Below are positions 13,803-64,000 of a DNA stretch of 64,000 nucleotides, in pieces (within the stretch, counting starts at the first letter, position 1; each line of letters opens with the position of its first letter). The stretch is taken from positions 1 through 64,000 of the IMG/VR virus record IMGVR_UViG_3300045125_000034. One strand, given 5' to 3'. The DNA is from a virus. Position numbers and translations under genes: made by a program. The notes beneath the pieces were generated by a model. It was given only the letters and a program-made list of their open reading frames with translations, searched no databases and was not told the DNA's origin.

Positions 13803-15071
13803 ATGAGCATGACCCGTGAACAGACCCGTAACGCCTTCCTGACCGCCGCCTATGCCTTGGCTGGTGGCGATCCCGTGATTACCCGTCCGCAGGTTTTGGA
13901 AGCCGCCGCTAGTGGCGGTGTGCCGAACCCTGCGTGGTTGACCAACGACCCCGCCTACCGCGCCGGTCGTGGTCAGTACCGTCTGCCGCCGATGCACCAA
14001 GCGTCCCGTGCTGCCGCCCCTGTGGTCCCTGTGACTGCCGCCGCCGCACCTGTGACCGCTACGGCATCTGAGGAACAGCCTTGTGGACCTGAACCTGTCC
14101 ATGCAGGCGATTGAGTCGGGTGGGTCGGCGGTCCCTGCGAAGGATCCGCTGTTCGTGCCGTATGGCGACCATGAGACCATCGTGACCGTCATCAAGAGCC
14201 GCCGATGGACCCTCCTATGTGGTCGGTCCCTGGAGTTGCGGCAAGACCTTCTCGTATCAGCAGGCGTGTGCCGAACTGAGCCGCGAGTACTACGAGGTGC
14301 AGATTACCTCAGAGACCACCGAAGACGATCTGCTCGGTGGCTTCCGACTGGTGAACGGGGAGACCAAGTTCGTGTATGGTCCCGTCGCCCTCGCCATGAT
14401 CCGTGGGGGCTTCCTTGTCCTTGACGAGATTGACCAAGCGACCAACAAGGTGATGTGCCTTCAGCAGGTTCTCAACGGCAAGCCCGTGTTCCTGAAGAAG
14501 ATCAACCAATGGGTCAAGCCTCGCCGCCGGGCTTTCAATGTCGGGGCTACCGCCAACACCAAGGGCAACGGTGACGAGAGTGGCCGCTGGTGGTGCGAAC
14601 CCGCTGAATGTCGCCTTCCGTGACCGCCTCTCGGGCATGACCTTCGTCGCTGATTACCCTGCCGCCGCCGTGGAGCGGAAGATCCTGACTAAGGCTATGA
14701 CCGCCGTGGGCGTGGAGGACGAGGAGTTCGGTAAGCGTCTGGTGGAGTGGGCAGGAGCGATTCGCAAGACCAACCGTGAGGGTGGACTTGAGGAGACCAT
14801 CACGACCCGCCGACTGGTGCAGATTGCTCGAGAACCTCGCCATCCTCGGGAGCCGCGTGAAGAGCGTGGAACTCGGAACCAACATCTACGACGAGATCAC
14901 CCACGAGGCATGCTCAACCTGTACAAGAAGGTTGACGATGAGGCCGAGCCGAAGGTGAAGGGTCAGGATGAACTCGGTCAGGCTCCGAAGGGTCCGACCG
15001 CTGCGGGTACGACCGCTGCCGCTGCCGCCTCCAACAACAGGTGTCTCCCTTCTGATGGTTTACAACTTTGA
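13803..15071 (+). CDS. MoxR/CbbQ/CobS-like AAA+ ATPase (phage CobS type), frameshifted
   Basis: Walker A GPWSCGKT, ETTEDDLLGGFRLVNGET, Walker B LVLDEID, ATANTKGNGDESGR, LNVAFRDR, ITTRRLV. Confidence 0.9.
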
Positions 15072-15194
15072 AGTCTTCAGCAACGCACCGGTCACCTATA
15101 GTGGTCCCGATGGAATCTCGTTGACGAGCAAAGCCTTTTGGGTCCTCTCGGCTAAGGACTCGGTGGGCAACACTCAGGCAATCGTTTTTGAAAA

Positions 15195-15758
15195 GTGAGT
15201 GGCATCTGCAACGGCGATCCTGAGATGATGTTCCTCCACTCCTACCTGAACACCGCTGCCTTCCGCTACCGTCAGACGGGAGAGTACCACCGAACGCTTA
15301 ACTTGGTTGACACCGAAGATGCACGAATCCAAACGAATTCTGTTCCGTTTGGCTCTGCGTGGATGCGTGGATTCAAGCCGATGGAGTACGCCCGTCAACT
15401 TTACAACAACCTGCTTGAGTACAACAACTTTCAACTCACCAACCACATTGACTACACTCTACTCAGGAAGGATGGTCTGCTGATTAGTTCAGGCAGGTCC
15501 GCATACAATAGTTCCCCCGACTATAGTGTGTGGGTCAACGACAAGACCATCGTTCCTGCTGATGGATGGAAGTGTCCGGATCTTCTGCCGCAGAACCCAA
15601 GCCTTCAGGAACTCAAGAATGACATCGGCAAGTTTATTGAAAAGTTGAAGGCAGGAGTTGAACTTCAAACTGCGCTGCTACCACCAAGACCTACTACGCT
15701 CTTGACGCATAAGAAAATCGTCAGAAACCTCTTGACACCAAACCGAAACCTGTTATAA
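15195..15758 (+). CDS. Hypothetical protein
   Basis: 187-aa ORF with phage-like codon usage. Confidence 0.5.
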   Translation: MSGICNGDPEMMFLHSYLNTAAFRYRQTGEYHRTLNLVDTEDARIQTNSVPFGSAWMRGFKPMEYARQLYNNLLEYNNFQLTNHIDYTLLRKDGLLISSGRSAYNSSPDYSVWVNDKTIVPADGWKCPDLLPQNPSLQELKNDIGKFIEKLKAGVELQTALLPPRPTTLLTHKKIVRNLLTPNRNLL

Positions 15759-55015: not shown

Positions 55016-56082
55016 ATGAGCGACTTTCTAAAGAGCATGATTCGTGCTTCGGGTAACGAGTGGGCAACCATAGCAGAGGATGGAGTTGATGGTGATGTTG
55101 CGGGCTTTGTAGACACAGGCTCGTACATCTTCAACGCTCTCCTGTCGGGTTCACTCACAGGCGGTATCGCAAGCAACAAGATCCTTGGTATCGCAGGCGA
55201 GAGTGCTACGGGCAAGACCTACTTTGCCCTTGGTATCGCCGCACAGTTCTTGAAGGACAATCCCGATGGAGCGATCCTCTACTTTGACAGCGAGCAGGCT
55301 GTTACGAGTGAGATGATCTCAGGCAGAGTGTCTTGACCCCGCTCGCGTAGCCGTATTCCCTGTGGCTACTGTGGAGCAGTTCCGTCATCAGTTGCTACAG
55401 ATCATAGACAACTACGGCAAGTTGGACGAGAAGAAGCGTAAGCCCTTCTTTGTGGTGTTGGACCTCGCTAGGCATGTTGAGCACTAGCAAGGAAACCAAC
55501 GACACACTTGAAGGCAAGGAAGTCAGGGACATGACTCGCTCGCAGGTTATCAAGGGAACCTTCCGAGTCCTGACCATGAAGTTGGGTCTGCACAAGATCC
55601 CGATGGTTGTGACGAACCACACCTACGATGTCGTTGGTGCGTATGTTCCGACCAAGGAGATGGGTGGTGGTAGCGGTCTGAAGTATGCTGCGTCTACCAT
55701 CGTTTACCTGTCCAAGAAGAAGCATAAGGTAGATGACGAGGTTGTGGGTAACATCATTCATTGCAAGTTGTATAAGGCTCGCTTCACCCGCGAGAACAAG
55801 ATGGTTGATGTGCTACTTACCTTTGACAAGGGGCTAGATAGATACTATGGTCTAGTTGACCTTGCTCTCTCGCAGGTAGTGTTCAAGAAGGTTTCCACCA
55901 AGATTGAACTACCCGATGGGACTACCGCCTTTGAGAGTCAGATCAACAAGAACCCCACCAAGTTCTTCACTGAGCAGGTCATGAAGTCCCTTGAGGCAGC
56001 AGCCGCGAAGGAGTTCAAGTACGGTAGCGACAGCGAAAGTGAAGTAGAAACAGAAAAGGAATTGGAGACAGCAGATGAGTAA
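55016..56082 (+). CDS. uvsX: UvsX RecA-like recombinase (frameshifted)
   Basis: [42 protein letters not shown]. Confidence 0.95.
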
Positions 56083-56755
56083 GTTTTTGAGCATAGTAGT
56101 TCCGTATAGAAACAGGCAAGAACATCTTGCGGTGTTTGCTCCGCATATGGAAAAGTTCCTTTACGACTTGGGTATAGAAAACTTCAAAATACTTATTGTT
56201 GAACAGGATGATCCACTCGTGAGGTCAAGCATTCAACAGAGCAAAACTTTTGAATGTTGGATTTGATTTGAGTAAGGACTATGACTATTTTTGTTTCCAC
56301 GATGTCGATATGATACCTACCGAAGCAGACTACAGTTGGGTGGATGAACCTACTCACATGGCAACAGAGTGTTCACAATTTGGATATCAGTTGCCATATG
56401 GTGGTTACTTTGGTGGGGTCACTCTATTCAATAAGCAAGACTTTTTGGATGTAAATGGTTACAGTAACGACTACTGGGGTTGGGGAGCAGAGGACGATGA
56501 TATGATGCTTCGTTGCTATTCTAAAAACAAATTGCACCCTCCTGCACATACCAAGAAGGCGTGGAAGATATGAATCTCTAAGCCATCAGAGAAGAATAAT
56601 ATTGAATGAGTATAAGGGGAACATACAAAAACTACAGACACTAAATCCAGATAATGTCTGTTTAGAGGGGTCTGAACACCCTTCATATGAGACCCTTGAT
56701 ATCAATCCGTATCCCAATACACAGCATACAACAATAGTAAAGGTGTCTATATGAG
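56075..56755 (+). CDS. GT7 beta-1,4-galactosyltransferase-like protein
   Basis: [42 protein letters not shown]. Confidence 0.9.
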
Positions 56756-57549
56756 TAAAGGTCTAATACTTGGGTCTTCAAAGGGTCTTTCTCTAGACCA
56801 ACTATATCCTTGGGCATCTTCTGCTTCAGAAACAGGGAATAGAGTTGTGTTACTTAACATGGATGGAGAGAGTAACAAAATGCTATCCCTTCAGTTAAAG
56901 GGGATTGGGATTGAAGTCAGGGATGTTGTTTCCGACAACACACTATCTCCGCATAATGCTAGATTTGTGGCTCAACACGAATACTTAAGCCGGGCGCGAC
57001 GAGGAATATTGTGTAATCACAGATGTTAGAGATGTTTTGTTTCAGGAGTGATCCAATAGAATGGATCACCAATAACATAGAAAATTATGATGTTGTATGT
57101 GCTAGTGAGGGTCTTCTTTATAAGGACGAACCTTGGGGTAGAGGTAATTTGATAGAGGGGTATCCCGATTTGTATGAGAGCCATAAAGACAACCCAATCA
57201 TGAATGTTGGTGTTATTGGGGAAATGCAGAGGAAGTTGCAAAGGTTTGTCTTAGAATATTTGAAATGTGCAAGGCAAACAAAGCATACTTAGCAGATCAA
57301 TCGTCTTTTAATGTTATCTGTGCTGACAGCACTATGCAGAACAAAATAAAGAAGACAACATCAAGAGATCCTTTTGCCTTGCATTGTAGTTGCTTGATTA
57401 GAAACTGCCGAGGTAGTAGTTTTGTCTTGAATGAGTCTACGGTTCATCTGTTAAAAGATCCCGAACCAATAAACGAAAAAGGAGTTCTAAAAACTCCGAG
57501 TGGTATCCCTTATTCTATAGTGCATCAATGGGATAGGATGCCGTCATGA
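56751..57549 (+). CDS. Putative GT-A glycosyltransferase (frameshifted)
   Basis: ITDVRDV, DQSSFN, IVHQWDR. Confidence 0.65.
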
Positions 57550-58348
57550 AAACTGTTTGCAGAAGATATCCCGATTGGTTAAATTTTGAATTGGATTTCC
57601 CTACAGAGATTCATTTACAATACCCAGAATTTCCATTTGACCCCAAAGATGGGGTATACCGAGTGTATTGTGATTCCTTTGAGCCATCGACTTCTTGTGC
57701 AAATCCAAAACAAATAAGTAAGATATTGCTCCTGTATGACCTCATTCTTACGAAAAATGAAAACATAGTTTCGGAATATCCAAACGCTAAGTTGTTCTTC
57801 TTTGGTAATTCTATGATGTATCCTGATGTTCCCGGCAGGAAAGAATTCTCCGTGTCTTTCTTGACAACAAAACCCAATTGGCATTTGCCGGGCTATGATT
57901 TGAGGTATGAACTGTGGGGCAAACAAGACGAGATACTTATCCCCAAGGTATTCTATAGTTCAAGAAGAATGCCAATAGATTCTTCTCGTATACTTCCGGG
58001 AGATGGCGGGGACAAGGATAAGATGTTGATGTTTGAATCAATGTTTCACATAGCAATAGAAAATACCAATGAGAAGAACTACTTCACAGAGAAGATAAAC
58101 GATTGTTTTTGGACGGAAACAGTACCCTTGTATTGGGGCAACAAAGATACAATCAACAGTAAATTTGACTCTCGGGGGTAATACACTTCCAATCAATACC
58201 AGAACTGATAGAGTTATGCAATTCTCTAACGCCCGACGATTACACTTCTAGGCTTGAGAGTATAAAGAACAACAAAGAACTATCTAAAGAATACTCAAGG
58301 CATATGAACGAACGCATCCGTGATGAAATTTTAATGAGAAGAAGATGA
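57546..58348 (+). CDS. GT10 alpha-1,3-fucosyltransferase-like protein
   Basis: FHIAIENT...YFTEKINDCF..TVPLYWG. Confidence 0.85.
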
Positions 58349-59072
58349 AGTGGTGTTTTGGAATAGTGTTCAATGGTATTGACTATTTGAGCAGACAAAT
58401 AGTCTCAATCAAGAACCAAGAGGGTATCTGTACAAACGACTATCAGATAATTTTAGTAGGGTCCAAGCACAGACGAATCTTCAAGATTGATTTCTTCGTT
58501 TCGGTCTGAAGGAATAGATATCTCTCTTATACCGTTTCAAGACACATCCGAAATGGGCTGGATAACTAAGAAGAAGAATCTTGTGGCTTACATGTCCAAG
58601 TACGAGAACTTAGTTATAACACACGACTATGTTGGTTTCTGCCGTGGGTGGTATAGAAATTTTGTTGAGTTTGGTGAGGATTGGGAGGTGTGCATGAACT
58701 CAATAAGAAGAGATGATGGTAGAAGGTTTAGGGATTGGATTACCTTTAAGGAATGGTGGGGTTGGCCTCTATTTCTTCCTTATGAAGTTACGGATCAAAC
58801 ATCCAAAATGTATGTTAGCGGAACTTATTGGTGCGCGAAGAAACACTACATGGTCAAAAACCCATTAAACGAAAAATCTAAGATGGGGGCAGGGTGAAGA
58901 CCTAGAGTGGTCTCATAGATGCAGGCACACTTGGAACTATAAGATAAACAAGAACTCTGTAGTTAAGTTGATGAAAGAGAAATTATGGAAGGGACAGCCC
59001 GACTATAGCCCGCACCCAGATACTGATCCTAATGTTGATGAAATTCTTACATCGTCAGAGGTTCAACCATGA
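58345..59072 (+). CDS. GT2-like glycosyltransferase (frameshifted)
   Basis: WITKKKN, LVITHDY, GEDLEWS. Confidence 0.65.
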
Positions 59073-59517
59073 AGGTTATAGCACACAGAGGAAATGTGTT
59101 TGGTCCGATACCTCTAAGGAAAACAATCCAAAGTATATTGAAGCAGCATTAGATCTTGGGTTTGATGTTGAGATTGATGTTTGGTTTGACGAGAGTGATT
59201 CGTGCGCGGGGTATTATCTCGGTCACGATCATCCCTTGTATAAAATTGATGCCTCTTGGTTGATGCGTGATGGAGTTTGGTGTCATGCCAAAAACCAGAA
59301 GGCACTAGAAAGAATGTTTTGTGACAAAATCCCCAACTATTTTTGGCATCAGGAAGATAGATTCACCATAACTAGTAGAGGTGATATATGGTGTTACCCA
59401 AACAATCCTAGTCGGTCGGGGATATTAGTCGATGTAGGTAGACCCAAACGAGGTCTTGATATTCGTGGAGTGTGTACAGACTACGCAAATGAATGGAAAA
59501 TGGAGTATAGAACATGA
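59069..59517 (+). CDS. Glycerophosphodiester-phosphodiesterase-like (PLC-like) protein
   Basis: IAHRGN, EN, GFDVEIDVW, LGHD, WCHAKN, GVCTDY. Confidence 0.8.
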
Positions 59518-60481
59518 AAACACTAGACATTTTTTACCTCACCTTTTCTAGACCAAACTTTCTTATTGCTCATGCTAGGGAAATAGCAGCAGCAATAAAG
59601 AAGAAGCCGGTGGTGAATTCAGTTGTATTTTTGGGCAATCCCAGCAGAATTCCTCAAGAAATTAAAGATCAACTCAAGGCAATTCTTGGTTCTAAACTCG
59701 TTATAGAAGATCACTACAAGAATCGAAGAGTACATGGCTAAACTTGATCGTATAGCCAGTTCTAAATCAGACTATACGATGAAGATTGACGAGGATTGCT
59801 ACATGACCTCCGAATCTTGGGTTAAGATGTTTGATTTGATGGACGAGATACAAGACAACGATTTGTTTGGTACTGGTTGTATAACAAACGGTATACCAAC
59901 ATGTGATCTTTTTCTTCAGAACCACGCACCAAAAGTAAAAGATCGAATCGAAACTGACTATTTCTGCAAGGCTCAGTTTTACCCCCATAAATGGAGCAGA
60001 TTATAGGGTGCTAAACCATCCATCATTGAAGATGAAATGGAATCCCGATCTTTTCTGGCATCTATTGTCTACAGTAAATCACCCCTATCAGGGGATTCAC
60101 CCCATGCGTCTTATGGGGGACGCAAACATAGTTCTAAACGATCACATAGTCAACAACTTTGATGAAACTATGCTTCCTAAAGACCTTCCTGTTATACACG
60201 AAAAGGACAAGTACCCCCATTACTGTCCCCAAGTTCTTTTGATGAAACCAGAAAATCTAAAGAAAGTCTTGTCTTCCAAAGAACTTTTTTATGACATGTA
60301 CGACGAAGTACCGCTGAACTTGTATAGAGAAAAACACGGAATGGCAATGGCTATAGGTGTAGGAATTCCAATACTTCATACTATGTTTAACTGGTCTCAG
60401 CAGTATGAATATGAAAGAACTCTTATAGATCGTTTGTGCAAGATATCTGAAGACCGCCATCAAAAAGAAGTATTCGTATGA
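59514..60481 (+). CDS. Putative glycosyltransferase (frameshifted)
   Basis: MKIDED (DxD-like), HPMR, YDE. Confidence 0.55.
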
Positions 60482-61205
60482 CCCCGATGAAGTTCAGGTA
60501 GTTATACCTCTTGCGGGGGAAGGCAAAAGATTTAGAGACAGGTATTCTTGCCCAAAGCCTCTCATAGACATAAGAGGCGAAAAGATGATATCTTTAGCCT
60601 TTAGAACTTTAGATATTCCTCACAGCAAAGCAGTATTCATAATACGATCAGATCACGATTACGATGGTATGTTATCAAAAACCATAGAGGAATTTTGTCC
60701 GAAAAGTTCTATAGTAGTTGTTGATAAATTGACAGAAGGTCCGTGCTGTACCGCTTTGTTGGCAAAACCACATTTAGAATCAGATAAACCTCTCGTTGTA
60801 GCGAATTGCGATCAGGTTATGAGATGGAGTGGTTCTAGGTTTATAAGATATTGTATAAGAGAAAACTATGATGGGGTTGTAGTAACCTATCATGAAGCCA
60901 CACCGAAAAATAGTTACGCTCGTTTAAACAAAAATGGGGATGTTGTTGAAGTAAGAGAGAAGAATCAGATAAGTTGTGTATCTTTGAACGGCATACACTA
61001 TTGGAAGAGAGCAGATTATTTCTTCGAATCTTCCGAAAAGATGATGAAAGCAGATGATAGGACTAACAATGAGTTTTACATTGCTCCCTCTTACAATTAC
61101 ATGATTGCTGATGGGCATACCGTTGGTATCTACCACATTCCCAATGAACAGCATTATGCTATCGGTACTACTCAAGATTTGGAGACCTACATAGGATAGG
61201 ACACA
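60478..61205 (+). CDS. Sugar-phosphate nucleotidyltransferase
   Basis: VIPLAGEGKRF, PKPLIDI, LTEG, ANCDQ, EK, NEFYIAP, IGT. Confidence 0.85.
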
Positions 61206-61218
61206 GAACGAGGTTCCG

Positions 61219-61548
61219 TGATGATAGTTGATATGATTCAGAACTATGTCTCGTGGGTGGTTTGTTGGAGACTTCGAACCTAGTATTCACAAAACTGATA
61301 AATTTGAAGTAGGCGTTCTTACCCACAAGAAGGGCGAGAAGTGGGCTGCTCATTACCATAAAGAAGCAAGAGAGATAAACCTTCTACTTGAGGGTAAGAT
61401 GTTGATGCATGGAGTGGAGTTGCAAGAAGGATCCATTTTTGTTCTTGAGCCTTGGGAAGTAGCAGATCCAATATTTCTTGAAGACTGCAAAGTTCTAGTA
61501 ATCAAAACCCCGTCTATAAAAGGAGACAAATATGAAGTTGTTTGTTGA
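61219..61548 (+). CDS. Cupin-fold protein
   Basis: GWFVGDFEP, HYHK..EINLL..GK. Confidence 0.75.
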
Positions 61549-62789
61549 TGAAAACAGCATTGATCGTGAGAAGTATTTTGTTGTTACCTATATGGTCGAG
61601 TCTGATAAAAGTCTTAGAGATGCTGCTTGGAATATTGCCATAGGTCAAAGTGTCGGAAACCCAAATGTTAGGGGAACAGGTGGGAGACCGGAAGACCTGT
61701 TTAAAAATCATTCGTGTCTCATCCTCGGGGACGAAGGGGAACTTAGTGTCCAAAAAATAGGAAAGGTCAAGATTGCTTTCCCCGTAATCAATACAGATTG
61801 GGAAACAGACGGAATTAGCCATTTCATGTGCCAAGTCATGGGTGGGCATGTGGACATTGATTTGGTTAAGAGATGTCGTGCTATTGATATAGATTTCCTG
61901 CATAGTGTTACAAAGCACTTCAAAGGTCCACGGTTTGGAATAACGGGAATGCGTGAATTTACAGGGCAATACGATAAGCCACTTTTGGTGCTATCATAAA
62001 GCCTAAGATTGGAATAAGCCCAGAGACACTATTGGATATGGTTAAGGAACTAGTAGAAGGTGGGGTTGACTTCTATAAAAGAAGATGAAATCATGTCCAA
62101 CCCATCATTCTGCCCGCTAGACACTCGGGTGGGTATGATCTCCAATTACTTGGCATCACAATCAAGAAATGTGGTATTTTGCCACACCATAAACTGCGAT
62201 CCGCATGTTCTAGAAAGTAGAGTTAGTCGCATACATTCTCTTGGCGGTAATGGAGTACACATCAATGTATGGAGTGGGTATGGTTCATACAACAGCATAC
62301 GAAAGATGGATCTGCCGATATACATTCATTTCCAGAGTAGTGGAGCAAAAGTCACAACCAACATTACAAATCAGTTCAGTATTAGTTGGCCTGTCATCTG
62401 CAAATTGGCAACAATGATGGGAGTCGATACCATTCAGACGGGAATGGTTGGTGGATACAGCAACGATAATCCCGAAGAAATTCTAGAGTGTGTTCGTATT
62501 TTACAACAGGGGAATACTGTCCCTGTCCTGAGTTGCGGATTGCATCCGGGTCTTGTTGATAAGATAACCTCACTAGTAGGTAACGACTATTTGGGCAATG
62601 CTGGCGGTTCAATTCACGGACACCCAAATGGAACACTATCGGGTGCTAGAGCAATGCGTCAGGTCCATAGACAAAACTTATGGGGTCGAGTACAATGAGG
62701 CAATAGCCAAATGGGGTAAGGTTCAGCCCGAATTCAACATAAAGCAGTTGTATGAAACTGTAGAGTACCAACTAAATTCTAAGGAGTAA
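61532..62789 (+). CDS. RuBisCO-like protein (form IV RLP), frameshifted
   Basis: KGPRFGITGMR, IIKPKIG, GGVDFIKEDE, PVLSCGLHPG, AGGSIHGHPNG..GARAMRQ. Confidence 0.92.
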
Positions 62790-62796
62790 ATGTAAT

Positions 62797-63403
62797 ATGC
62801 AATGGCAAACAGATCTAATAGCAGACATTCGGTTTAATGATCCTAACATAGATGATAGAGATGATGTAACCGGCTTGTTTCTGGCTATGGGTAGACATTT
62901 CGAATTTACGAATGACAACCATACAGCATTACAGAAGGCAATAAGTGCCTGTAGAACTCCCCCAAAAACTTTTTGAAATTGGTGTGTGCAGAAATGCATC
63001 ACAGTCATCTACACATACTATAATAAAAAATGTTCCATCGGACGGGGTTTATCTCGGTGTGGATCTTGATGACAAGACATTTTTAAACGACGCATCAAAG
63101 GGTATACACACCATAAAAACATCATCTTCAAACTACGATGAGGTTGTTAATAGATTAACTAGTCTTGGTGTTAAGACTTTGGATTTCATATTCATTGATG
63201 GTTGGCACAGTATAAATCAGGTTCTTAAAGATTGGGAGTATACAAAACTATTGTCTGACGGTGGTGTTGTTGGGTTCCATGATACTCGACTGCATCCGGG
63301 TCCGCACTATTTTATAAACAATCTGAATAGAGATAAGTGGGAAGTACACTCCAATCTTTGCCCCAATGATTGGGGTTTGGGATATTGTAGAAGAAAGGAT
63401 TGA
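62797..63403 (+). CDS. Class I SAM-dependent methyltransferase (frameshifted)
   Basis: FEIGV, GVD, FIFIDGWHS, GGVVGFHD. Confidence 0.8.
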
Positions 63404-63407
63404 TAAC

Positions 63408-64000
63408 TTGAGAAAACTGCATTAGTCACAGGAGCGTCGGGTTTCATCGGCTCAAACTTGGTTGACCATCTTGTTGGTTTGGGGTGGGATGTTGTTGGTA
63501 TAGACAATGAATCTAGCCTAGCCCACGACAAGTTCCACTACAACTCAAAGGCATCATATGTACCAAAGGATGAAGCAGACATCTCTACAGAGAAGCCTTG
63601 GAAGGCATTAGCCAACCATAAGTTTGACTATGTGTTTCATATGGGTGCAGAGTGTCGTATTCAGCAATGCATAGAGAATCCTGCCCTATGCATATCAACT
63701 AATGTTTTAGGTACAGTAAAGACTCTTGAATACGCCGCGAAGATAGGAGCAAAGAGACTTGTGTTCTCGTCCACCTCCTCCATATACTCAGGCTGTGACT
63801 ATGCAGCAGATGAGAACGAAGAGCCGATCTGCATCAATCCCTACGCTTCCACTAAACTTTCGGGAGAGGTCTTCTGCAAGCAGTACAGTATGACTACTGA
63901 GTTGGATACGGTTGTGCTTCGTTACTTCAATGTGTACGGCGAGAGACAGCCAATCCGTGGTTCGTATGCTCCTGTAATCGGTGTGTTTCAACGACAACTA
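63408..64000 (+). CDS. NAD-dependent sugar epimerase/dehydratase (runs off the window)
   Basis: LVTGASGFIGS, FSSTS, YASTK, LRYFNVYG. Confidence 0.9.

Follow-up and report, generated by a model that had tools for sequence, protein, structure and literature searches.

To our knowledge, all characterised RuBisCO-like proteins (RLPs) serve salvage or catabolism, namely methionine salvage, the methylthioadenosine (MTA)-isoprenoid shunt and the breakdown of apiose. In the MTA-isoprenoid shunt of Rhodospirillum rubrum, a small cupin acts alongside the RLP, and the pair yields a 1-deoxy-ketose phosphate. OiaX and OiaC, the RLPs of D-apiose catabolism, reportedly act on branched keto-acid sugar phosphates (Carter et al. 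2018). Outside the RuBisCO superfamily, the LicC/LicD (with GlpQ) pathway of phosphocholine decoration and the TarI/TarJ pathway of CDP-ribitol use a nucleotidyltransferase (NT) of the RmlA fold to activate a small phospho-alcohol, a LicD-family protein carries out the phosphodiester transfer, and a GDPD belongs to the same pathway. RLPs are also present in phages. Jaffe, Castelle, Dupont and Banfield (2019, Mol Biol Evol, PMC6389311) described some 80 divergent sequences related to form IV that are encoded on phage contigs, part of which belong to Myoviridae. These form IV-like phage sequences came from many environments and grouped with Beckwithbacteria, and their function was left open (PMC6389311).

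Here we analyse an RLP gene at positions 61532..62789 of a 64,000-nucleotide stretch of viral DNA (hereafter the window), which is the first 64 kb of the IMG/VR record IMGVR_UViG_3300045125_000034 (145,204 bases, CheckV completeness 67%). The encoded protein is a new member of the published phage clade. It is probably a working, non-carboxylating enzyme of a RuBisCO branch that is linked to an NT and travels in a mobile glycan-decoration cassette, where it is predicted to tailor a keto-sugar phosphate. The cassette consists of the RLP and the NT, usually with a miniature GDPD-type phosphodiesterase (protein x) and a small metal cupin and often with a methyltransferase, and is located in surface-glycan islands. 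An earlier note on this DNA, made from the sequence alone, had proposed a viral use of the RuBisCO fold that had not been characterised. The function is indeed uncharacterised, but the phage clade has been in print since 2019 and the family is not specific to viruses.

Active site and integrity of the RLP

In the window, the C-terminal piece of the RLP matches PF00016 (8.7e-20) and the N-terminal piece reaches PF02788 at 0.0074, which is below the cut-off. The intact orthologue of a close relative, locus L008 (9473-10663), passes the gathering cut-offs of both families (PF00016 1e-35, PF02788 1.3e-05). By these profile matches, the RLP is a member of the RuBisCO large-subunit superfamily, with an N-terminal alpha+beta domain and a C-terminal TIM barrel. 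Its nearest solved structures are form III RuBisCOs and MtnW enolases, with E values of 1e-39 to 1e-35 (8dht at 1.2e-39; also 2cwx and 1geh). All NCBIfam scores stay far below the respective cut-offs, with 193 bits against 497 for rubisco_III, 171 against 409 and 140 against 514 for the MtnW models, and 150 against 700 for OiaX.

Active-site residues were checked against the form III structures 8dht, 2cwx and 1geh and in an alignment of 54 phage orthologues. K175 and K177 (IVKPK), the K201-x-D203-E204 motif (IKEDE), S379 and G381 (LSCG) as well as G403 and G404 (GGA.HGHP) are invariant. In the numbering of L008, the lysine presumed to be carbamylated is K182, and Q267, S269, Y308 and C334 are invariant. 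Substituted positions are E60 (to G), T65/W66 (to N/P), N123 (to G), H294 (to Q), R295 (to S), H298 (to A) and H327 (to Q), and loop 6, which reads GMxGGY, has no lysine at K334. The residue pattern marks the RLP as a form IV-type, predicted non-carboxylating protein and not a bona fide RuBisCO of forms I-III. Judged by established knowledge of RuBisCO structure and function, it should be able to bind Mg2+ and one phosphate and to enolise a substrate, and should be unable to carboxylate. The residue losses rule out both a carboxylase and a function in the AMP pathway. The earlier note had read the site by eye, with KPK and K-x-D-E kept and E60, H294, R295, H327 and K334 lost, and had called the protein form IV-type; the structure and sequence alignments bear out each of these calls.

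The same note had described a full-length gene at 61532-62789. A gene is located there, but in the raw sequence it occupies three frames and is interrupted by three single-base frameshifts, which lie within 61979-61995, 62068-62084 and 62657-62672. Read from stop to stop, the pieces are 61520-61999, a stretch of 26 codons in another frame, 62057-62698 and 62580-62789. Conserved sequence runs on across each break (DKPLL/GAIIKPKIG, GGVDF/IKEDEIM and AMRQ/.IDK, with the slash at the break). Breaks of this kind recur in the neighbouring genes: those for a gtA-like protein and for protein y each lie in three frames, x lacks its N-terminal HRGN, and the methyltransferase and epimerase genes are split, which brings the count near the RLP to at least 10 frameshifts within about 7 kb. 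Single-base indels occur across the whole contig, where partial open reading frames overlap on one strand, and gene calls on it need frameshift-tolerant reading.

Taken at face value, the three frameshifts would suit a decaying or inactive gene, and a G+C content below that of most of the contig (about 0.40 in the island versus 0.44-0.57 elsewhere on the contig, with about 0.48 in the rest of the window) would suit host DNA joined by misassembly. However, the indels are contig-wide, and the RLP is uninterrupted in 76 of the 78 related loci that hold both halves of the gene, where it measures about 396 amino acids (392-403, a few with extensions). The breaks are therefore most likely sequencing or assembly errors and not decay. 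Since all but two of the 78 orthologues are intact and the active-site motifs do not vary, we conclude that the RLP clade is under strong purifying selection.

A host chimera is equally hard to reconcile with the position of the island, which spans about 56-64.3 kb of the contig of a T4-like myovirus. Its left flank is a fragment of the gene for the RecA-like recombinase UvsX (55408..56079, plus strand like all features described here), which is 73% identical to L008:806-1828, itself a match to Pfam RecA at 4.6e-17. On the right, pieces of the helicase gene gp41 follow just beyond the end of the window. The intact relative L008 carries the same island between its RecA-family uvsX and a DnaB-type gp41 (13850-15241, DnaB_C), the latter about 60% identical to gp41 of T4-like cyanophages. 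Since the island sits between these two T4 core genes in both contigs, it is not a host chimera, an outcome that the earlier note had named as one way in which its reading could fail. With the gene on at least 114 viral contigs, an inactive or chimeric origin is scarcely credible. The low G+C content (window 56000-62000) would fit an exchangeable module at the uvsX-gp41 position that was acquired horizontally.

An RLP clade linked to a nucleotidyltransferase

To place the protein, two fast maximum-likelihood trees were computed (LG+G4, SH-aLRT support); named references cover some but not every RLP subgroup, and clades were named through protein-cluster look-ups. Phage and cellular RLPs form a single clade with an SH-aLRT value of 99 (77 rows in one tree), apart from 54 other RuBisCO and RLP representatives in the first tree and 13 in the second, including the named MtnW P0118. 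The RLP falls outside the MtnW clade in both trees. Within the clade, phage and cellular sequences interleave, and one phage group joins chromosomal SAR11 copies with a support of 99, implying repeated exchange.

A Beckwithbacteria locus (L117) also lies inside, which together with the myovirus-type contigs and the lost carboxylation residues identifies this clade with the 'IV-like' clade of Jaffe et al. (2019). As found here, the clade is wider, extending to SAR11, Legionellaceae, Azospirillum, Actinomycetes, Verrucomicrobia, Bacteroidota and DPANN, and is defined by linkage or fusion to the NT. In a text search of PMC6389311, nucleotidyltransferase, cupin and glycosyl genes did not come up, and that paper offers no gene-context analysis; searches of the literature turned up no subsequent functional study of phage RLPs.

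Relatives of the RLP with 53-84% identity are encoded on at least 114 viral IMG/VR contigs. When 5.8 billion clusters were searched, 2986 proteins matched at E<=1e-10; the best-scoring 120 (90%-identity clusters) are all at least 68% identical. Among 1.84 billion 50%-identity representatives there were just 303 matches at E<=1e-3 and 21 at <=1e-30, so the branch is well separated from mainstream RuBisCO. None of 50,697 deposited phage genomes was matched by the RLP in a tblastn search, and PHROGs holds no RLP family, although it does have families for x, the NT and the cupin.

Of 57 non-redundant phage loci, 55 have the NT, adjacent to the RLP, 46 have x, 41 the cupin and 25 a Methyltransf_24 protein, and the cassette genes are nearly always contiguous and on the same strand. 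Further neighbours in the phages are FkbM and sugar C-methyltransferases, radical SAM/SPASM proteins, GT2-like, WavE/DUF7796-like, GT7 and GT10 proteins, and SDR epimerases. A variant cassette at L089:7242-11470 (GCA_040960315.1, with phage-like replication genes) has the order radical SAM, Methyltransf_24, DUF3307, RLP, cupin and NT, followed by GT2 genes and more radical SAM/SPASM enzymes; a 158-amino-acid protein of this locus was considered as a homologue of x and rejected.

Clear relatives were found in 50 of 185,579 cellular species genomes. Carriers are three Legionella species, Tatlockia, a metagenome-assembled genome (MAG) of Francisellaceae, Azospirillum oleiclasticum, Nonomuraea rosea, many SAR11 including a complete Pelagibacter chromosome, Elusimicrobia, Turneriella, Verrucomicrobia, Bacteroidota and Planctomycetes, as well as Beckwithbacteria and Saccharibacteria of the candidate phyla radiation (CPR) and DPANN archaea. 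Some short contigs from single amplified genomes or MAGs may be phage DNA, which megabase-scale contigs cannot be. The NT adjoins the RLP in 46 of the 50 genomes, and contig truncation affects three of the remaining four. In A. oleiclasticum, the full set of x, RLP, cupin and NT stands beside CysD/CysNC, GT41 and an epimerase, and in Legionella drozanskii a LicD-family gene is divergent from the RLP-NT pair. By Pfam, the 150 proteins surveyed near the RLP in 21 cellular loci include GT2 (10), methyltransferases (8), canonical GDPD (PF03009; 5, in addition to the mini-GDPD), epimerases (4), Bac_transf (2) and WavE (2). The combination of RLP, NT, cupin and phosphodiesterase, which the earlier note had suggested might recur in phages and bacterial polysaccharide loci, does so in both, and in archaeal glycan loci.

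The two enzymes also occur as one protein. A natural RLP-NT fusion of 667 amino acids heads a 128-member cluster of mostly marine sequences, and the fusion places both enzymes in one pathway. The locus of this fusion (L142) also encodes the cupin, a second NT, WavE and methyltransferases. In addition, a phosphoenolpyruvate (PEP) mutase, a split phosphonopyruvate decarboxylase, an Fe-alcohol dehydrogenase, an NT and two sulfatase-family proteins are encoded beside RLP-NT-cupin at L142:2707-5381; this PEP-mutase set looks like phosphonate (2-hydroxyethyl- or 2-aminoethylphosphonate, 2-HEP/2-AEP) decoration of glycans. In the glycan island of cyanophage S-SKS1 (HQ633071.1; L084:7004-8431), a homologue of the NT is fused to a complete 3,4-dihydroxy-2-butanone-4-phosphate (DHBP) synthase (RibB; Pfam 5.4e-65), an unusual combination. 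DHBP synthase, which enolises ribulose-5-phosphate, begins like RuBisCO with a 2,3-enolisation of a ribulose phosphate, and its product has a terminal phosphate only. Homologous NTs are also fused to class III HAD phosphatases.

The most basal relative of the clade (P0024, Actinomycetota) lies next to genes for a transketolase, an FGGY kinase, an aldolase, an ABC transporter, glycosidases and a GPI-type cupin. Together with the 150 bits for OiaX, this context might suggest that the phage RLP is a catabolic enzyme, such as a decarboxylase or transcarboxylase of the apiose/tetronate type, with which infected cells burn an unusual sugar. Such a role is most improbable: the OiaX cut-off is not approached, the phage loci and most cellular loci have no set of kinase, transporter and dehydrogenase but only NT, glycosyltransferases and methyltransferases, and an RLP-NT fusion would make no sense in catabolism. 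Homology between the GPI-type cupin of P0024 and the phage cupin was not significant (hhalign E 0.11). In the wider search, two metagenomic proteins of 726 and 742 amino acids (P0029 and P0050) consist of an IF-2B/e2b2-family isomerase fused to a full RuBisCO large subunit; the isomerase is of the ribose-1,5-bisphosphate or methylthioribose-1-phosphate type, apparently uniting two consecutive steps of an AMP/nucleoside pathway.

Partner proteins and the remainder of the island

The genes that the earlier note had named around the RLP are all present where it had placed them, as confirmed by Pfam and by orthologues. The NT (60486..61199) has an RmlA/LicC-type fold and is 69% identical to the NT of L008, through which it matches Pfam NTP_transf_3 at 8e-08. 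Its start codon is ambiguous, with the G-x-G-x-R motif lying upstream of the first ATG (60585). The family consensus PMAGxGSRF...PKPL carries this signature and belongs to NTP_transf_3/NTP_transferase in Pfam. In the PDB, the NT profile matches 4evw, an uncharacterised Vibrio 'NDP-sugar pyrophosphorylase', at 7.6e-35, followed by GMPP, RmlA, HddC and GlmU.

The gene for the single-domain metal cupin (about 100 amino acids, H-x-H...E motif) lies at 61246..61548. In the alignment, HYHKxxxE is conserved and H52, E59 and G66 are invariant. Its AlphaFold2 (AF2) model has a predicted local distance difference test (pLDDT) score of 94, and Foldseek returns small cupins at probability 1.00, the nearest folds including the Thermococcus phosphomannose isomerases 7zvm and 7zvy, and KdgF. 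The ATG of the RLP gene (61532) is located 17 nt inside the cupin gene, whose stop is at 61546-61548, and AAGGAG precedes this ATG by seven bases. Given the overlap and the ribosome-binding site, translational coupling of cupin and RLP is plausible.

The pairing of an RLP with a cupin recalls methionine salvage, where an MtnW-like enolase is followed by acireductone dioxygenase (ARD), and the MTA-isoprenoid shunt, where an RLP isomerase of the Rhodospirillum type (DeepYkr, acting on MTRu-1-P) works with a cupin methylsulfurylase; a module of the latter kind would recycle MTA, possibly into deoxyxylulose phosphate. The two genes are adjacent and some loci have a HAD phosphatase close by, an arrangement reminiscent of MtnW/MtnX/MtnD, and the RLP is about 29% identical to a named MtnW. 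Against such a module stand the separate position of the clade in both trees and the MtnW scores, which fall short by hundreds of bits. The N-domain of MtnW contributes a catalytic lysine, reportedly K98 in Geobacillus (Imker et al. 2007); the 'FGK' of MtnW aligns to 'GG..DID' in the RLPs, which have no conserved lysine there. ARD and MTA-shunt methylsulfurylase were considered as identities for the cupin; the PDB profile search (E<=10) contained neither and returned generic metal cupins only. Moreover, mtnA, mtnB, mtnK and mtnP are absent from the neighbourhood, and the partner that recurs throughout is an NT within glycan islands. Taken together, a module of methionine salvage or of the MTA shunt is quite improbable.

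Protein x is encoded at 59032..59517, where an indel disrupts its N-terminal HRGN. In the family alignment, H6, R7, E18-N19, E35-x-D37 and H49-D50 are invariant or nearly so, and the profile matches the Pyrococcus GDPD 7e0v (E 1.4e-4) over the catalytic motifs. The AF2 model (pLDDT 97) finds GDPDs as all of its top Foldseek PDB hits, with TM-scores of 0.55-0.60 normalised to the query and about 0.4 normalised to the target. The relatives of x measure 144-150 amino acids compared with about 220-250 for a full (beta/alpha)8 GDPD barrel, and x has no Pfam match, PF03009 included. By motifs and model, x is a putative reduced, or miniature, GDPD.

The gtA-like protein (58336..59066) was located by tblastn with L008:11088-11852, its pieces lying in frames 1, 2 and 3 with two frameshifts between them; it has no Pfam family, and the family was found in 8 phage loci. 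Protein y (59517..60481, located with L008:7457-8425) is 323 amino acids long in relatives and has no Pfam match; it is possibly GT2-like, the ESM Atlas link to GT2 clusters serving as a lead only. Downstream of the RLP, 62797..63403 encodes an S-adenosylmethionine-dependent methyltransferase of the Methyltransf_24 family (PF13578 9.6e-07, with a frameshift near 62950-62975) that resembles CmcI and rhamnosyl O-methyltransferase. It is followed by an NDP-sugar epimerase/dehydratase of the SDR type (63407..64000, continuing to about 64339 of the contig; Pfam Epimerase 7.5e-28), whose orthologue L008:12908-13825 reaches 2.1e-55 for Epimerase and behind which the gp41 pieces begin.

Another family of the glycan islands has about 250 amino acids, starts with MKxAxxxSGxxR and bears a weak likeness to WavE/DUF7796. 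It occurs in L007, L009, L018, L031, L045 and others (for example L014:4403-5164), with two to six paralogues per island, and is once fused to a mini-GDPD (L070:8206-9273). An apparent grouping of these proteins with x was an artefact of the L070 fusion. They may be the missing transferases of the cassette; neither kinship to LicD nor a solved homologue was found for them.

Predicted pathway and relation to known systems

Fold, retained metal, lysine and phosphate sites, NT linkage and glycan context suggest the following pathway. The RLP would use its K201/D203/E204 carbamyl-lysine/Mg2+ site, K175 and the P1 phosphate loop (G381, G403/404) to enolise a mono-phosphorylated keto-sugar, presumably of the pentulose-phosphate type, which would be rearranged by isomerisation or migration of the carbonyl group. 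Where present, the cupin may isomerise or trim the RLP product. The NT would join the phospho-compound to a nucleoside monophosphate (NMP), yielding a nucleotide-activated donor that could then be installed on a glycan. The more specific proposal, that the fold serves a previously undescribed anabolic role in which a pentulose-type phosphate is tailored into an unusual ketol, alditol or branched unit, activated by the NT and put on surface or virion glycans, perhaps as a phosphodiester, in a system exchanged between phages and hosts such as SAR11, strikes us as plausible without yet being probable.

As to the nature of the donor, we tentatively prefer a compound resembling CDP-ribitol or CDP-choline, from which a phospho-ketol or phospho-alditol would be transferred as a phosphodiester by LicD-type or other transferases, with the GDPD-type enzyme handling the phosphodiester. 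Such a donor is preferred because it needs no mutase to account for the direct fusions of the NT to the RLP and to DHBP synthase, and because it also explains the LicD of Legionella and the GDPD partners.

The earlier note had instead favoured an unusual activated sugar, made by RLP, cupin and NT for the neighbouring glycosyltransferases. By a classical nucleoside diphosphate (NDP)-sugar route of this kind, RLP and cupin would turn a common ketose phosphate into a rare aldose phosphate, a HAD-type mutase would convert it into a sugar-1-phosphate, and the NT would form the NDP-sugar. GT2, GT7, GT10 and epimerases are plentiful nearby, the solved relatives of the NT after 4evw handle sugars, and small phosphomannose isomerases are among the nearest folds of the cupin. 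However, the conserved core of the cassette contains neither a mutase nor a kinase, in phages and cells alike; the two fusions to enolising enzymes imply that the NT takes their product directly, with a terminal and not an anomeric phosphate; and GDPD and LicD would be left without a role. We consider this route unlikely on balance. The product that the note had proposed is conceivable, and several of the observations fit a phosphodiester at least as well.

A number of points weigh against the pathway preferred here. Fusions of HAD_2 (beta-phosphoglucomutase-like) proteins to the NT in cyanophage S-PRM1, other phage loci and Pelagibacter of the SAR11 group would suit a conversion of sugar-6-phosphate via sugar-1-phosphate to NDP-sugar. 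The NT profile is nearer to sugar-1-phosphate NTs, with LicC and IspD absent from the matches at E<=1e-5, and LicD was found in Legionellaceae only. Many loci do without the cupin or the GDPD, whose roles may therefore be peripheral, and the catabolic surroundings of the basal P0024 mean that the clade is not uniformly biosynthetic. Adjacency and fusion speak for a shared pathway, from which the order of the steps does not follow. Our lean towards the phosphodiester donor is thus slight, and given the likeness of the NT and the HAD-NT fusions, the NDP-sugar route is well alive.

If the biosynthetic reading holds true, this would be the first biosynthetic use of the RuBisCO fold, probably yielding a new activated donor, and phages would use the cassette to remodel surface sugars during infection. 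The cassette is also found in cells of ecological and medical relevance, namely in Legionella, in CPR/DPANN organisms and in the hypervariable glycan regions of SAR11. As the copies of phages and SAR11 are intermixed in the tree, it may belong to an arms race over surface sugars between abundant marine and freshwater phages and their hosts. With A. oleiclasticum, L. drozanskii, L. nautarum, L. maceachernii and N. rosea as cultured carriers, the question is directly testable.

Among the known systems, form III RuBisCO of Thermococcus and Pyrococcus, an enzyme of the AMP pathway, is the best sequence match but differs from the RLP in E60, N123, H294, R295, H327 and K334. With MtnW/YkrW, the enolase of 2,3-diketo-5-methylthiopentyl-1-phosphate (DK-MTP-1-P), the RLP has in common the fold, K175, K201, D203, E204 and the GGxHGHP phosphate loop, and the Mg2+-assisted enolisation of a mono-phosphorylated keto compound is likely shared chemistry. 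Unlike MtnW, it belongs to a separate clade, scores well below the model cut-offs, has no lysine at the N-domain catalytic position and has no methionine-salvage neighbours. In chemical terms, the product of the R. rubrum shunt resembles the DHBP that the NT-fused enzyme of S-SKS1 makes, whereas the sequence of our cupin has no specific link to that of the R. rubrum pair (PDB profile, E<=10) and the loci contain no MTA genes. OiaX and OiaC find their counterpart in the transketolase-containing cluster of P0024, while the context of the RLP described here is biosynthetic instead. LicC/LicD and TarI/TarJ resemble the proposed pathway in the way they work, and the comparison is meant in this sense only: those pathways include neither an RLP nor a cupin, and the NT is not matched to LicC or IspD structures at E<=1e-5, but in Legionella a LicD gene directly adjoins the RLP-NT pair.

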